64,000 bases of DNA, taken from the NCBI GenBank assembly GCA_965112155.1, contig OZ218107.1. One strand, written 5' to 3'. Positions 14,407 through 53,483 of this stretch are shown piece after piece. This stretch comes from Podarcis liolepis (taxonomy: Eukaryota). A program made the translations under genes and the position numbers. Position 1 is the first letter of the stretch, and the number at the start of each line of letters is the position of its first letter. The notes below the pieces were generated by a model. That model was given only the letters and a program-made list of their open reading frames with translations, had not been told where the DNA came from and ran no database searches.

Positions 14407-14570
14407 GAGGAGGTCTGGGGAAATAAGCGTAAGGAAGATATGGTATGGAAAATTATTTGTTTTTTAACTGTTTTTATGTTGTACTTTGTACTTTGTTTCT
14501 TTTTATTTTTTTATTTTTTCATTGTTATATTTTTAAAAAACTTTAATAAATATCTTTTGGAAAGAAAAAA
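14407..14570 (+). mobile_element. Short A-tailed retroposon (L1-like 3'UTR fragment) nested in CR1
   Basis: 19-bp TSD aggaagttcttcctaatgt at 14388-14406 and 14571-14589; AATAAA followed by an A-rich end; absent from the second CR1 copy near 57480. Confidence 0.85.
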
Positions 14571-16240
14571 AGGAAGTTCTTCCTAATGTTTAGGTGGAAT
14601 CTTCTTTCTTGTAGTTTGGATCCATTGCTCCGTGTCCGCTTCTCTGGAGCAGCAGAAAACAACCTTTCTCCCTCCTCTATATGACATTCTTTTATATATT
14701 TGAACATGGCTATCATATCACCCCTTAACCTCCTCTTCTCCAGGCTAAACATGCCCAGCTCCCTTAGCCGTTCCTCATAAGGCATCGTTTCCAGGCCTTT
14801 GACCATTTTGGTTGCCCTCCTCTGGACACATTCCAGTTTGTCAATGTCCTTCTTGAACTGTGGTGCCCAGAACTGGACACAGTACTCCAGGTGAGGTCTG
14901 ACCAGAGCAGAATACAGTGGCACTATTACTTCCCTTGATCTAGATGCTATACTCCTATTGATGCAGCCCAGAATTGCATTGGCCTTTTTAGCTGCCGCGT
15001 CACACTGTTGGCTCATGTCAAGTTTGTGGTCAACCAAGACTCCTAGATCCTTTTCACATGTACTGCTCTCAAGCCAGGTGTCACCCATCTTGTATTTGTG
15101 CCTCTCATTTGTTCTGCCCAAGTGCAATACTTTACATTTCTCCCTATTAAAGTTCATCTTGTTTGTTTTGGCCCAGTTCTCTAATCTGTCAAGGTCGTTT
15201 TGAAGTGTGATCCTGTCCTCTGGGGTGTTAGCCACCCCTCCCAGTTTGGTGTCATCTGCAAATTTGATCAGGATGCTCTTGAGTCCATCATCCAAGTCGT
15301 TGATAAAGATGTTGAATAAGACCGGGCCCAAGTCAGAACCCTGTGGCACCCCACTAGTCACTCTTCTCCAGGATGAAGAGGAATCATTGATGAGCACCCT
15401 TTGGGTTTGGTCAGTCAGCCAGTTACAAATCCACTGAGTGGTAGCAAGGTCAAGACCGCATTTTACCAGCTTCTTTACAAGAATATCATGGGGCACCTTG
15501 TCAAATGCCTTGCTGAAATCAAGGTAGGCTACATCCACTGCGTTCCCTTCAACTACCAGGCTTGTAATTCTGTCAAAAAACGAGATCAGGTTAGTCTGAC
15601 ATGACTTATTTTTCAGAAATCCATGCTGACAATTGGTGATCACAGCATTCCTTTCTAGGTGCTCACAGACTGTTTGCTTAATGATCTGCTCCAGAATCTT
15701 CCCTGGTATTGATGTCAGACTGACTGGGTGATAATTATTTGGGTCCTCTCTTTTCCCCTTTTTGAAAATAGGGACATTTGCCCTCCTCCAGTCTGCCGGG
15801 ACTTCACCTGTTCTCCAGGAATTCTCAAAGATGACTGCCAGTGGTTCTGAGATTACATCTGCCAGTTCTTTTAATACTCTTGGATGCAGTTCATCTGGCC
15901 CTGGAGACTTGAATACATCTAAACTAGCCAAGTATTCTTGTACTATCTCCTTAGTTATTCTGGGCTGTGTTTCCTCTGCTGAATCATTTGCTCCAAATTC
16001 TTCAGGTCGGGCATTGTTTTCTTTATCAGAGAAGAATGAGGCAAAGAAGGCATTGAGGAGTTCAGCCCTTTCTGTGTCCCCTGTTTGCATTTCACCATCT
16101 TCTCCTCTGAGTGACCCCACTGTTTCTTTGTTCTTCCTTTTGCTACGGACATACCCATAAAAGCCTTTTTTGTTGCTTTTAACCTCTCTAGCAAGCCTGA
16201 GTTCATTCTGTGCTTTAGCTTTTCTGACTTTGTGTCTACA
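14543..16240 (-). pseudogene. CR1 ORF2 reverse transcriptase region (no endonuclease domain; C-terminus disrupted by an insertion)
   Basis: 597-aa ORF 14543..16336. The first ~32 residues are flanking sequence and the last residues (FFFPKDIY) come from the nested insertion. Confidence 0.9.
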
Positions 16241-17149
16241 TGGACTTTGGAGTGTTAATACTGTGAGCCCTTCCAGCCTATGCTCAGGTTCTGTATGTGT
16301 GTAAGGTACATATCCTAACAACACCACAGTCACCACTGACCTTCATTCCATGGAAACCAACCCCTGGAGCCTCTCACTGCTTGAAGATTGGGGTGTGCAC
16401 AATAATAATATGAAAATTTATTATTATGCCACTGATTCATTTGAGCATGTTTAGGACCACCACAGTCTTTCTAATAGTTTAGGCCTGTGATCAAATTGTT
16501 GCATTGCCTTCAGTCGTGTGCAAGCGAGTTCTACTGAGTTTAAACTCAGGCAGATTACGTTAATCAGCTGGAGTCTTTTAAAATTTATTTCTCTCTCTTC
16601 CTGTGTGAAGCGTCTTACTGTGTATAATCTAATGTGCAGCTATGTTTGAAAAGATTTCGATAGTCCTTCAAGGAAAACCACAAAATATAATAAATATGAT
16701 AAAATAGTTTCTAATGGGTTGTTCTAAGGAAAATTGCAACTAAATTATGAGTAGTTATTTCTTTGAAGTGCCTTTATAATAGGATGTCAAATCAGTCAAG
16801 GTCATATAGGTAAGAATAAAGGGTTTAGGTCACAATTACAAGGTAGGGGACTGTTGTTTGCAGAACAGCAACCCCGGAAAAGATTTGGGGATCATGAACT
16901 CTCATTTACTGCTCCAGCAAGGAAAGTTACCATCAGCACTGAACATACAAGCAGGAAAGAGGTGCCTGCCCAGCACATGCAGTTCTCTAAGTGTCCCTGT
17001 CATAACTTCAAAACCAAAGTGGAAAATCTTGCAAGAATAGATCTGGAAGCAAACTAGATGCGACGACCAAAGCTCCATCTAGTCTAGCATTGTCTTTCCA
17101 ATGGGCAGGGTGGGAAAGGAAATTAACCCTCTCACACTGTTCACCCCCA

Positions 17150-38852: not shown

Positions 38853-39008
38853 CTCATATTGTACTTGGATTTCTCAACATTCAAGGGATTCTGAGGTAAT
38901 CAATATATATATATATATATATATATATATGCTTTCGTAGATTTTCACGGGTACAGGAATGCAGGTTTTGGTGTCTTCGGGTGTCTTCCCGTGTAAGAGT
39001 TGGGGTGT

Positions 39009-39055
39009 CTAGGCGACGTTTCGACGAGGTCTCACTCGTCATCTTCAGGCTGGTG
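39009..39055 (-). ncRNA. Second copy of the hammerhead motif, in the inverted pLTR
   Basis: gacgtttcgacgaggtctcactcgtcatcttcag (39015-39048) is the exact reverse complement of 41189-41222. Confidence 0.8.
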
Positions 39056-39337
39056 CTTTCGGCTTCTTGTTACTGGAACAGAGCAGGATCTCAGTGTTTG
39101 AGTTCCTATAAATACTGTTGAGGGGGTGTGGTGTATAGCCTCCAACGTTCTGGGCAGAGAGGAAGTTCCCAGGTTAGTGTGCCTTTTCTTCTTTTGTTCC
39201 TTAATTACTTGAGGGATATCTTGAGTGATTTCTTGAGTGATATTCTGAGTACCACTTAGGTGGGTCATTAAGTGTGGATTAGTTGCTAAAGCTTTCGTGT
39301 CTTGACCTCTTGAGCTTGTGAAGAGTTTTTCTGAGTC

Positions 39338-40951
39338 AGCTCCATAGGCTCACCTCTACAAAATCTCGCTAAATTTCTCGCTAAGCAACTTCAGCCCTAT
39401 GCAGAATCCATCGCTTCACACGTTACTAACTCCTTCCAGTTCATAGAAACAATAAAGAAGCAAAACCTACATCCCGATGACCTACTTGTGAGCTTCGATG
39501 TTGTATCTCTCTTCACACAAGTGCCCATTAATGAAGCCTTGACAGCCATTCAAAACAAATACAATCCCCCCGAATACATCCTGGACCTGACCAACCACTG
39601 CCTAACCAACACGTACTTCATCCACAATGGACAAAGATACAAACAGATAGAAGGAGCACCTATGGGATCACCCCTCTCACCGGTCATCGCAAATTTGTAC
39701 ATGGAACACTTTGAAACCAATGCTTTAGACAAGTCAGAACACAAACCCAAACTTTGGCTCAGATATGTTGACGACACCTTTGTAATTTGGCCACACGGGA
39801 AAGAAAAACTAGATAGCTTCCTCACACATCTCAACAGCCTACACCCCAAAATACAATTCACTATGGAAATAGAAGCCAACAACCAACTTCCCTTCCTTGA
39901 CGTCCTAATCTACAAAAAACCTGATGGCTCCCTAGGACACACTATCTACCGGAAAAAAACACACACCAACCGCTACTTACATGCACAATCACACCACCAC
40001 CCTGCACAAATAAACTCCGTAGCCAAGACTCTCATCTCCAGAACCAAACGCCTGGCTAACAAAGACCACTTGACAACTGAGTTACAGAATCTCTCAAATG
40101 TGTTAATCGCCAATGGATACCAGCAAAACAGGGTTACGAAGCTAATCCAAAAAGAAACACCCCCCAAAAACCAAGACACAGAAGAAAACAATGGCATGGC
40201 CCTCCTTCCTTATATCAAGGGCACTACAGATAAAATTAGCAAAATCCTCCATAAACACAATATCAAAACAGCCTTTTGCACCAACCAAAAAATAGCCAAT
40301 ATCCTCAGAAACCCCAAAGATAAAATCCAGTTGGAAAACCAAGGGGTCTATGAAATACCCTGCAAAGTCTGCCCAGCCACGTACATTGGACAAACAAACA
40401 GACGAATAAATGCACGTATCGCAGAACACAAGAATGCCGTCAAAAAAGAAGAAAAAACTTCCTCTCTTTTCCAACACATGAAAGAAACAGGACACGAAAT
40501 TAATTTTGCAGATTCCAAATTGCTCTTTAACATGGAACATCACCACAAGAGAATAATCATGGAAGCCATCGAGATAGAGAAACACCCTCACAACATGAAC
40601 AAGCGTGACGACACGTCCCGCCTGCCAGACATCTGGAAATTAGCCCTCCCCACAAAAACCGACACCAGAACCAGAGGCACACAGAACGCCATCACCAATC
40701 AACCACACCAGACCCAAACCCAGACCCTCTCCACAGATAAATTACAGACTCCATCCAGTAGCCAAACCATAGTGGCACCTCCGGATGCTGCACCCCCCTG
40801 CAATCCCTACACAGATCTGGCTGGCACAGGGCACAAAACCACAGCTCGCCCCTATACACGAAGCCAAGCCAGAGCACAACTAAGTGCAGTACAGCCATCT
40901 TCTCAGAAAAACTCTTCACAAGCTCAAGAGGTCAAGACACGAAAGCTTTAG
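39338..40951 (+). CDS. Penelope reverse transcriptase / GIY-YIG endonuclease, 5'-truncated open frame with no true start
   Basis: SFDVVSLFT, GAPMGSPLSPVIANLYM, LRYVDDT, LPFLDV and GVYEIPCKVCPATYIGQT. The frame is open upstream of 39488 (SSIGSPLQNLAKFL...) back to the inversion junction. Confidence 0.9.
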   Translation, partial: SSIGSPLQNLAKFLAKQLQPYAESIASHVTNSFQFIETIKKQNLHPDDLLVSFDVVSLFTQVPINEALTAIQNKYNPPEYILDLTNHCLTNTYFIHNGQRYKQIEGAPMGSPLSPVIANLYMEHFETNALDKSEHKPKLWLRYVDDTFVIWPHGKEKLDSFLTHLNSLHPKIQFTMEIEANNQLPFLDVLIYKKPDGSLGHTIYRKKTHTNRYLHAQSHHHPAQINSVAKTLISRTKRLANKDHLTTELQNLSNVLIANGYQQNRVTKLIQKETPPKNQDTEENNGMALLPYIKGTTDKISKILHKHNIKTAFCTNQKIANILRNPKDKIQLENQGVYEIPCKVCPATYIGQTNRRINARIAEHKNAVKKEEKTSSLFQHMKETGHEINFADSKLLFNMEHHHKRIIMEAIEIEKHPHNMNKRDDTSRLPDIWKLALPTKTDTRTRGTQNAITNQPHQTQTQTLSTDKLQTPSSSQTIVAPPDAAPPCNPYTDLAGTGHKTTARPYTRSQARAQLSAVQPSSQKNSSQAQEVKTRKL

Positions 40952-41181
40952 CAACTAATCCACACTTAATGACCCACCTAAGTGGTACTCAGAATATCAC
41001 TCAAGAAATCACTCAAGATATCCCTCAAGTAATTAAGGAACAAAAGAAGAAAAGGCACACTAACCTGGGAACTTCCTCTCTGCCCAGAACGTTGGAGGCT
41101 ATACACCACACCCCCTCAACAGTATTTATAGGAACTCAAACACTGAGATCCTGCTCTGTTCCAGTAACAAGAAGCCGAAAG

Positions 41182-41228
41182 CACCAGCCTGAAGATGACG
41201 AGTGAGACCTCGTCGAAACGTCGCCTAG
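41182..41228 (+). ncRNA. Minimal type-I hammerhead ribozyme in the Penelope pLTR
   Basis: CUGAAGA (41189-41195), U, stem II GACGAG / UGAGAC loop / CUCGUC, GAAA (41215-41218), then CGUC; predicted cleavage after C41222. Helix I pairing is weak. Confidence 0.8.
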
Positions 41229-41273
41229 ACACCCCAACTCTTACACGGGAAGACACCCGAAGACACCAAAACC

Positions 41274-41320
<47 letters not shown>

Positions 41321-48914: not shown

Positions 48915-49845
48915 TATAAATATAGGCAGAGGTCTTTGCTGCTTTCTTTGTTGCATAGGCTCACACAAACCCTGCAAGAGCCAAGTAAAAATGCTTTCCA
49001 CTAGCCATTCAGATGTTTTCCAGCAAATGCATGTTGTCTGTTTTTCCAGATCAGGTTATCAAACATTTCTGTTTGTTTTCTCTTGATAGCTATTTAATCA
49101 ACCTGATCTACCCCACCAGTCCAAGGGAGAGAAAATGAGAGGGGAAAAGCAGTGCCTTCAGCATAATCCAAAAACCCATTACGTTACTATACACTTTTTC
49201 ACCACTGTCCATCACATCATCAGTGAAATATTTTTTAAAAGAAATATTAATAAATTTAGCTTCAGAGCAGCCCTATGAAATTAATTATTTTCATATATTC
49301 TTTTCTAAAAAGAAAAAAATATAACTCTTAAGGCACAGTAACTGGTGCAGAATCACACAAAGGATCTTAAAGTCAGAGGTAAGAAACTGCATGTTATGAA
49401 ACCGTAATGATGGTTTACTCTCAGGGCCACCCGTCCGCTGATGAATGACAGTTCTGCTCTATAGGAGCTCCACTGGCAGAACCCATCTCTGCTTGCATAT
49501 ATTAATTTCAGAAAAGGCACCGAAGGAAATGCAAAGAAACGTCTGAGTTCTAACGAATGCAAAATTCCTAATATGAACTGAACCAGTACTCCCTCTTCCA
49601 TACATATTTGCAGTGGGTTAAGAAATAATTAATGCACAGAATATCTTGTTGGAAATTTGTTTTGCCTTTTGCATGTGTCTTACACAGATACATGATGGGA
49701 AACAGCTACACCATCTCAAGCTCTATGGCTTGTTGTGAGATAGGAAAGGCCTTGTTCCTTTTTCGGGGGACAAGGGCTTGAAACAAGGCTCCCATCCAGC
49801 AAGATATAACTATAGCTTGCATTATCGTCATGTCAATGAAATGAT

Positions 49846-51250
49846 TAAAGAAAACAAAAATAAAAATGGATACATAGCAATTCGAGATTTGAATTGGAAT
49901 TGCTAAATAATAAATTTAAAATACTATCCAAAATGGATAGATTACTATTGGAATGACATTTAAAAGATGAAGTTAAATCAGTTATGATACATTGGGCTAC
50001 AGACATAGGCCACAATATACCAATAGACGACTGGGGGAGATTATGGAAAGAGGGGGAAAACTTTACTGCCTGCAGTGCGCTAGAAGAAAATATAATGAAA
50101 ATGATGTATAGATGGTATATAACACCAGTAAAACTAGCCAAAATGTATAAAACAAATAATAAATGTTGGAAATGTAAATAAAAAGAAGGCACGTTTTACC
50201 ATATGTGGTGGGAATGTAAGAAAGTAAAAGACTTCTTGGAAATGATTTAGAATGAAATTTAAAAAATGTTGAAATATACTTTTCAAAAAAAACCCCAGAA
50301 GCTCTTTTACTTGGTATGGTATGTTCAGAAATCCATAACAATGATAAAAACATGTTTTTATATGTGACCACTGCAGCAAGAATATTATTAGCCCAACATT
50401 GGAAGCAAGATGAAATATCAACAAAAGAAGAGTGGCAAACAAAACTGATGGACTATGCTGAGCTGGTGAGACTAACAGAGAAAATCTGAAACCAGCAGGA
50501 CCAGATTTTCCTAAAGGACTGGAAGAAATTTATGTTGTACGGTATTTAAAAGACAATTGTAATTATTTAACATTGCTTGTAGGGTTACAAGAAGTTTTGT
50601 AAGGAGGACTTTATAAATTATTGTGAAAAGGATTAAAAATAGATGATGTAAAAGTGGATTTAAAGCAATAAGTATAGTAATAAAATGCAAAAATAGAGAG
50701 GAATTTAGAAAACCATTAGAAGGTGTCAGGGAACTGACATCGGAGGGAGAGGCGAAGGGGAGGCTCCCAGATGATGCTGGCGAAGGACCCAGCAGCAGGG
50801 GGAGAAACAGCTCAGTAGAGGGGGAAGCCAATCAGCGCAACACCAGGGATAAAGGGGGGCTGACGGGGGAATTGGAGAGAGGGCTCCAGGACTCTTCACT
50901 GGATATCAGTGAGGAGAGCCCAGGTCCTCCGCTACCCACGCCTTCCCTGCGCAGAAGACTCCCGCGCAGTGAGAGGAGGAGGAGACTGGGTGTCAAACAA
51001 CTTTTATGTTGGAAGAGGTTCAAGAAACGCCCACTGACGGATTCTGCCAGTGACTGAGGCAGCCACGATGAGAAGGGGCTGTGCAGTCAGAAAGGTTTAA
51101 CAAGGCAAACTAACCAAGAAAGGCACCAGCTTACGCACGAGTAACTCATACCCATTACAGAAGGGGATTGAGGGAAGTCTTAGGCTGTGATAGCCAAATA
51201 TTTGTTATGATGTTATTAAGTTTTTCATGCAAAAAAACAATAAAAATTTA
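49846..51250 (+). mobile_element. L1-clade LINE 3' fragment (ORF2 C-terminus + 3'UTR), interrupted by a solo LTR
   Basis: KMMYRWYITPVKL...CWKCK*KEGTFYHMWWEC cysteine-rich motif; in-frame stops; ends with AATAAA and A-rich sequence near 51240. Confidence 0.85.
50724..51159 (+). mobile_element. Solo LTR (436 bp), Gypsy-like
   Basis: TGTCA...TTACA termini; perfect 5-bp TSD gaagg at 50719-50723 and 51160-51164; GC-rich island within an AT-rich L1 3'UTR. Confidence 0.88.
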
Positions 51251-51718: not shown

Positions 51719-52377
51719 CTTGAATATGTAGTTGGCTCTAATTCATGGCTCATAGACAAGTCCCATTGGGGGATGGGGAATCTGTGAGCATCTGGATGTT
51801 GTTAGTTTCCAACACTATATTATTACTTTTAAAACTTTGGACATACTGTAGTTGTTGATTCTGTTATGTACAAAAAAAATAAAAAAGACCCACTGACCCT
51901 CACTGAGAAAATGATGAAGCCAGATCCCATTGGCTGTACATTGGCCATTTTTCTCACTGCACAAAGTCTGATTTCACATTATGAGTTCAGAAAGAAGAGG
52001 CAGCAGGCATAGGTGTTTATGTGGGGAATAGCACAGAAACAGCATTAGCCGTAGCACTAGGAAATGTGGCACCACTTAGGACTGAATATAATTAAGCATT
52101 CCATGTGGCCCCAGGAGAAGTAGTAACATAACTGAAAATCAAAAGTGGTGAATATTTAGTGCAAAATTAGAGCAATAATAAGGCGTAATATGAAACAGTG
52201 GCCAACAACAGTTATAAAAGCCTATTCCAGCAAAATACAGCAGCACCAAATACCAAAACCTTCTTCAGCAACATTACAACAGCAGGTACAGTCAACAAAA
52301 TATCTCCCATCAGTCTACCCAAAAGCCTGGGAGATATGGCTAAATATAACATCATTAGTATTTCAGAAGTCCCCATT

Positions 52378-53483
52378 GTTGTCATTTAGTCGTGTCCGAC
52401 TCTTCGTGACCCCATGGACCAAAGCACGCCAAGCACTTCTGTCTTCCACTGCCTCCCGCAGTTTGATCAAACTCATGCTGGTAGCTTCAAGAACACTATC
52501 CAACCATCTCGTCCTCTGTTGTTCCCTTCTTCTTGTGCCCTCCATCTTGCCCAGCACCAGGGTCTTTTCCAAGGAGTCTTCTCTTCTCATGAGGTGGCCA
52601 AAGTATTGGAGCCTCAGCTTCACGATCTGTCCTTCCAGTGAGCACTCAGGGCTGATTTCCTTCAGAATAGATATGTTTGATCTTCTTGCAGTCCATGGGA
52701 CTCTCAAGAGTCTCCTCCAGCACCAGAATTCAAAAGCATCAATTCTTCGGCGATCAGCCTTCTTTATGGTCCAGCTTTCACTTTCATACATCGCTACTGG
52801 GAAAACCATAGCTTTTACTATACGGACCTTTGTTGGCAAGGTGATGTCTCTACTTTTTAAGATGCTGTCTAGGTTTGTCATTGCTTTTCTCCCAAGAAGC
52901 AGGCGTCTTTTAATTTTGTGGCTGCTGTCACCATCTGCAGTGATCATGGAGCCCAAGAAAGTAAAATCTCTCACTGCCTCCATTTCTTCCCCTTCTATTT
53001 CCCAGGAGGTGATGAGACCAGTGGCCATGATCTTCGCTTTTTTGATGTTGAGTTTCAGACCATATTTTGCGCTCTCCTCTTTCACCCTCAATAAAAGGTT
53101 CTTTAATTCCTCCTCACTTTCTGCCATCAAGGTTGTGTCATCTGCATATCTGAGGTTGTTGATATTTCTTCCAGCAATCTTAATTCCGGCTAGGGCTTCA
53201 TCCAGCCCAGCCTTTCGCATGATGAAATCTGCATATAAGTTAAATAAGCAGGGAGACAATATACAGCCTTGTCATACTCCTTTCCCAATTTGAACCAATC
53301 AGTTGTTCCATATCGAGTTCTAACTGTAGCTTCCTGTCCCACATAGAGATTTCTCAACAGACAGATGAGGTGATCAGGCATTCCCATTTCTTTAAGAACT
53401 TGCCATAGTTTGTGTGGTCGACACAGTCAAAGGCTTTTGCATAGTCAATGAAGCACAGTCAATGAAGTTCATAGTCAATGAAC
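52378..53483 (-). mobile_element. Bov-B (RTE) LINE, 5'-truncated
   Basis: NINNLRYADDTTLMAESEEEL, WCWRRLLRVPWTARRSN and VHGVTKSRTRL; (CAA)n-type tail; one frameshift near 53290; TSD tccccatt at 52370-52377 and 53484-53491. Confidence 0.96.

Follow-up and report, generated by a model that had tools for sequence, protein, structure and literature searches.

Plant retrotransposons of CRM group A encode a CR motif inside their 3' LTR (PMC3059260, PMC3605345), and the motif has been described as a helix whose tether is poorly conserved (PMC11302176). In the beet elements Bingo1-4 and 7 the ORF also extends into the LTR, and the Bingo group II chromodomain has neither the first nor the third cage aromatic; group II chromodomains have been seen only in plants according to the same paper, whose available part reports neither a conserved LTR-encoded motif nor a selection test (PMC3605345). 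The Tf1/sushi group (V-clade) of fungi and vertebrates is marked by self-priming, which uses the 5' end of the RNA (PMC6317226, PMC4600332). The accessible text of these two papers makes no mention of a Pol tail encoded by the LTR, and the word 'ORF' does not occur in the available part of a paper on Sushi LTR modelling (PMC3601003). In Ty1 integrase, the linker of a bipartite nuclear localization signal (NLS) binds a host factor and determines the target (PMC7459421). For vertebrate gypsy elements, nuclear entry and insertion-site choice have been little studied. Our literature search returned no described LTR-encoded Pol tail in these elements, although Repbase, Butler et al. 2001 or supplements may note one, and UniRef contains the tail described below inside Pol entries without comment. 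We present here a lizard Ty3/gypsy chromovirus in which the frame carried by the LTR is almost certainly the selected end of the Pol polyprotein, offering a short selected segment for study of these steps. We put the probability at roughly 70% that the selected last 45 residues of this tail, carried on a flexible tether, serve in nuclear import and in docking to chromatin.

The LTR lies at 50724..51159 (+) of a 64,000-nucleotide window of the Podarcis liolepis genome (contig OZ218107.1, assembly GCA_965112155.1), to which coordinates refer unless another sequence is named. A preliminary description of the window had called it a solo LTR, in agreement with its TGT..ACA ends and the target-site duplication GAAGG on its left (50719..50723, +) and right (51160..51164, +). 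The 436-bp copy belongs to subfamily A and interrupts a decayed repeat with a broken translation (49845..51250, +, borders approximate), which we take to be the 3' end of an L1-like LINE. In contigs of run X14 the two flanks are joined and the LTR is absent. The LTR is itself a repeat: a first look gave 3730 candidates, a figure that is not a copy number, and the 40 that were scored are all 98-100% identical. Copies 98-99% identical to the window LTR occur elsewhere in the genome, and two such LTRs flank the internal region of locus L031. The description had also noted a 110-codon frame without ATG, and translation bears this out. There are 110 open codons from 50725 and a TGA at 51055-51057 (together 50725..51057, +), all four ATGs of the LTR are out of frame with them, and the flank upstream has 26 open codons, none of them Met. 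Frame length by itself is weak evidence of coding. Runs of at least 110 open codons arose in 36 of 2000 dinucleotide shuffles when this frame alone was counted, in 234 when any sense frame was allowed and in 548 over all six frames, and the P value for the open frame alone is 0.17. Among 120 LTR copies (the 30 top matches to each of four subfamily queries, the window copy included) the 5-bp duplication is exact in 91, and the frame is open to the common stop in 102.

What the frame belongs to can be seen in copies with internal sequence. In L031, two LTR matches 4.3 kb apart surround gag, reverse transcriptase, RNase H, integrase, SH3 and chromodomain. Stops and frameshifts interrupt this copy, and its protease region is missing; Pfam on L031 and protease families on the public protein P0005 give the order gag-PR-RT-RH-IN with a C-terminal chromodomain. 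A polypurine tract (PPT) precedes the 3' LTR in copies with an internal region. The element is a Ty3/gypsy chromovirus and probably one of the Tf1/sushi group. The last frame of L031 runs for 366 codons from SH3 (Pfam E 3.5e-19) through the chromodomain (E 4.9e-6), an acidic linker and the PPT to the LTR stop, and the chromodomain matches CBX/HP1 chains (E 3e-5). The window frame is an orphan copy of the last 110 codons and stop of this Pol. Thirty pol-bearing copies were examined, two of them without an LTR junction; among the remaining 28, chromodomain and LTR share a frame in 17, the reading stays open into the LTR in 13, and it continues to the usual stop in 8. In 11 of the 28 the chromodomain is out of frame, and because the break sites differ we attribute this to copy-level indels. 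In a sister family of the same genome, chromodomain, PPT and 115 LTR codons share one frame at 15 of 30 fetched loci, and 28 of 150 matches to a query with its tail lie inside frames of at least 1300 codons. In a further family (family 2), with a Pol 50% identical, 29 of 30 copies read through into the LTR; its LTR tail of about 115 codons, of acidic, Pro and Arg character, is unrelated to the family-1 tail and starts with an in-frame ATG. Family 2 (L062, L183-L212) is a very young chromovirus whose chromodomain has a full aromatic cage. The public Pol proteins P0001, P0004 and P0005 already terminate in the family-1 tail, and relatives both of the element's proteins and of a host exon carry lizard labels. 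Entry of the frame from the internal region across the PPT, one of two routes proposed in the preliminary description, is what L031 and other copies contain; the frame does extend upstream of the 3' LTR, as the end of Pol and not as a separate gene.

Selection was assessed between four LTR subfamilies that are 10-18% apart, with real copies compared pairwise and the diversity within subfamilies subtracted. Net pN/pS across the four subfamilies is 0.41-0.54 for all 110 codons, a value similar to that of the overlapping antisense phase. Codons 1-65 give 0.77-1.02 and the sequence beyond the stop gives 0.90-1.31, against 0.13-0.16 (bootstrap 0.04-0.35) in codons 66-110. The split between codons 65 and 66 was picked after the translations had been seen, and a permutation test allowing for this choice was matched in 0 of 1000 cases. 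Differentiated columns of codons 66-110 are distributed 4/2/17 over the three codon positions (p 8e-5), and the third-position excess there persists outside CpG (p 0.002); the non-CpG test across all 110 codons is not significant (p 0.13). Indels preserve the frame as well: the one subfamily-common indel within it is 3 nt long, and the 102 nt that follow the stop contain four of 1-2 nt. Between the window and a sister copy 27 of the 45 residues of codons 66-110 are identical, and 16 of these 27 as well as the stop use different codons; pS is 0.79 (saturated), pN is 0.27, and blastn finds no match between the two over these codons. In family 2 all 150 matches are 93-100% identical, too alike for a selection test. 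Codons 66-110 (50920..51054, +), a conserved Pro/Arg-rich segment, are under protein-level selection. Codons 1-65 (50725..50919, +), a predicted-disordered acidic spacer with 15 D/E in 65 and a pLDDT below 50, keep the frame while their residues are free and drift as in a spacer, and the open frame across them therefore serves to reach the protein-selected segment. The preliminary description had named a dN/dS below 1 between subfamilies as a test, and the last 45 codons agree with it, the first 65 being near neutral. LTRs can carry protein-selected coding sequence in a vertebrate, and this affects both LTR dating and annotation.

The selected segment has a recognizable architecture. Bipartite NLS patterns consist of two basic residues, a spacer of 10-12 residues and three basic residues out of five. 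Such a pattern is found in 6 of 6 alignment rows listed, at 50974..51030 (+) in the window LTR, where two basic clusters flank a predicted helix (50992-51027, residues 40-51 of A1; block pLDDT 86). The fold of the whole 366-residue tail of L031 has a mean pLDDT of 47, with the chromodomain alone confident and the rest predicted disordered, including a spacer of about 160 residues between chromodomain and conserved segment. A profile search of 1.84 billion representatives gave four matches, of which P0001 and P0008 are plausible relatives; P0007 and P0009 are repetitive and were rejected. P0008 is an unnamed 148-residue protein from a 680-base contig that has the same residues at the LTR start. 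This distant relative keeps the helix residues and has no NLS pattern, which suggests that the constraint on the helix is older. When the LTR peptide was searched against Pfam, PDB sequences and the ESM Atlas, nothing usable came back, the sole PDB matches being to CKS2 (E 0.9-1.1). A likeness to the nucleosome-binding motif of a centromere protein was considered and rejected, as these searches returned no such match.

These features make a nuclear-import and docking module the likely identity of the conserved segment. In such a model, translation of Pol would run on from integrase, across chromodomain and PPT, into the 3' LTR, and the tail would be made only from full-length RNA, whose 3' end copies U3 and so would carry the tail codons. 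Because LTRs are copied from the RNA 3' end, every LTR, solo LTRs included, would inherit the frame. The two basic clusters may confer nuclear import, and the invariant hydrophobic helix between them may bind a host factor, as the NLS linker of Ty1 integrase does. The module may also supplement the chromodomain (L031:2090-2287, -), whose first and third cage aromatics are missing from all 22 family-1 copies that were matched; the sister-family chromodomain keeps the first. We assume here that the protease leaves the tail on the integrase. It could instead be translated and then released by the protease, acting alone as an RNA-binding or capsid-import peptide, and both the long disordered spacer and the 14 K/R among the 45 residues of codons 66-110 would suit a released peptide. 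Plant CR motifs and the Ty1 targeting domain, however, work attached to integrase (PMC11302176, PMC7459421), and we regard release as unlikely.

With the tail taken as an attached end of integrase, the element can be compared with those named at the outset. It is like the CR motif elements in layout, but it is not a CRM element. In both, the Pol frame crosses the polypurine tract, enters the 3' LTR and ends, behind a poorly conserved tether, in a basic helical segment that is conserved and has a proposed role in integration targeting. In CRM the CR motif replaces the chromodomain, whereas the lizard element keeps a chromodomain upstream; CRM is primed by tRNA-Met and the lizard element by itself, and the CRM motif TRARAR/K is absent from A1. 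Lizard copies are spread along the chromosomes, which may be a departure from the centromeric clustering of CRM. The 146 placed LTR copies (excluding the second LTRs of two elements, one unplaced match and contigs C10, C19 and C20) fall in all ten deciles of the chromosomes, thin out mid-chromosome and include two within 2 Mb of a contig end, a spread that fits no single target. Flank GC gave no sign of target preference (0.434-0.439 for 91 solo copies vs 0.429 for the window). With the Tf1/sushi group the element shares domain order, SH3 plus chromodomain and self-priming (PMC6317226, PMC4600332), and with Bingo the missing cage aromatics and an ORF reaching into the LTR, although Bingo belongs to a plant clade (PMC3605345). 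The Ty1 integrase is alike in its long tail that ends in two basic clusters and in a linker with conserved residues; Ty1, however, is a copia element whose partner is the Pol III subunit AC40, and the likeness drawn here is one of layout (PMC7459421).

Two candidate LEDGF-type motifs adjoin the selected segment. Between chromodomain and PPT, L031 (L031:1865-2137, -) has two repeats of an aromatic anchor, an acidic S/T linker of 8-9 residues and FxGF. This part of the Pol tail precedes the LTR and lies outside the window. The repeats fit the published TND-interacting motifs (TIMs) of LEDGF and HRP2 partners, with their hydrophobic anchor, acidic S/T linker and FxGF (PMC9987994, 10.1101/624023); according to the review, FxGF is essential to the known partners of both proteins (PMC9987994). 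The described TIMs differ in that they belong to host proteins; the viral examples in the accessible part of the review are lentiviral integrases, and the string 'transpos' does not occur there (PMC9987994). Under a search rule written after the motif had been seen, an acidic linker of 8-16 residues with S/T followed by FxGF, 26 of 30 copies have two matches and all 30 at least one; at least two matches arose in 12 of 20000 shuffles. In the sister family repeat 1 reads LxGF, and family 2, searched up to its break, has no such motif. TIMs have an obligate anchoring helix; in the lizard tail a helix (160-168) is predicted before repeat 1 with falling confidence, and none before repeat 2. The complex of the LEDGF IBD with repeat 1, folded without alignments, scored 0.27 against a mark of 0.34, a value that speaks neither for nor against binding. 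A PDB search with the FxGF region gave one match, which we judged to be chance. Our literature search found no described FxGF motifs in a retrotransposon integrase. From sequence likeness we consider it possible, though doubtful, that the tail is modular and joins a degenerate chromodomain, two FxGF motifs mimicking LEDGF/HRP2 partners and an LTR-encoded import-docking helix, in place of heterochromatin reading. If so, retrotransposons would be tethered to the chromatin reader of HIV integrase via the host's own short motif. The tail would then be a vertebrate parallel to the plant CR motif, and the LTR a swappable coding cassette for integrase tails.

The conserved codons share the LTR with predicted signals of transcription and priming. 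The leader after the 5' LTR is without a tRNA-type primer site; 11 nt of it pair with LTR nt 310-320, the predicted self-primer (51033..51043, +). All 11 positions pair in five of seven family-1 5' LTRs and in nine of nine of the sister family, in three covarying versions, a count that sets aside five further rows followed by host DNA. The pairing is mismatched in L006 and L079, and a shuffle control was run on the mismatched L006 and is uninformative. Following the Tf1 model, we infer that the transcript starts near 51033, at the border with R, and that U3 ends near 51032, which would place about 103 codons of the frame in U3. A putative, weak TATA-like hexamer (51002..51007, +) lies 31 to 26 nt before the predicted start; the matching hexamer of the sister family is less TATA-like, and family 2 has a TATA-like box 31 nt before its self-primer. 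Predicted RNA and promoter signals overlap the helix codons as well as the last 8 codons of the frame. The window copy is probably an ordinary, silent solo LTR, because its own promoter would start at about 51033 and cover only the last 8 codons.

This arrangement bears on the preliminary description's central proposal, an unrecognised accessory protein, compared there to nef and sag, with splicing at TGTCAG/G as one possible entry. The AG at LTR nt 5-6 and the Arg-rich peptide agree with a protein made from spliced or LTR-driven RNA, and the public model P0006 ends in the peptide, which shows that gene models can take up the LTR as an exon. The frame, however, is continuous with integrase and chromodomain, in phase with pol in three families, and has no in-frame ATG, whereas nef and sag genes have their own start codon and are separate from pol. 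The sequence before the AG is purine-rich, with 7 and 6 pyrimidines in 20 nt and no polypyrimidine tract. RNA reads from related organisms, at a depth too low to be decisive, listed no splice joints on the element, and none among the joints listed led into 50730. We therefore consider a separate protein very unlikely, and since the element is a Ty3/gypsy chromovirus, the plant CR motif is the closer analogue.

Passive read-through, with a Pol that merely has no earlier stop and conservation that reflects promoter and RNA signals in the LTR, could draw on the near-neutral codons 1-65, the chance frames of purine-rich sequence and the overlap of self-primer and TATA-like hexamer with the conserved segment, but it is largely refuted by change concentrated at third positions of codons 66-110 (fractions 0.04/0.02/0.21 by codon position), by the different codons behind the residues shared between families and by common frame-breaking indels that occur only after the stop.

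Some further observations concern the surroundings of the selected Pol tail. P0006, a public model of a phospholipid-transporting ATPase, terminates in the conserved LTR segment, and this ending is either an annotation artefact or an exonised solo LTR. Through solo LTRs a ready-made exon for a basic peptide has become dispersed over the genome, P0006 being one gene model that already terminates in it. Contig C20 (40 Mb, G000) holds 22 of 40 pol-bearing matches vs 8 of 157 LTR matches and is likely a non-recombining W chromosome. The window itself contains other elements. Reverse transcriptase fragments of LINEs lie at 14543-16342 and 52363-53271 (-), and a 538-codon frame with reverse transcriptase and GIY-YIG domains, Penelope-like, is enclosed by perfect 377-nt inverted repeats at 38959-41278.
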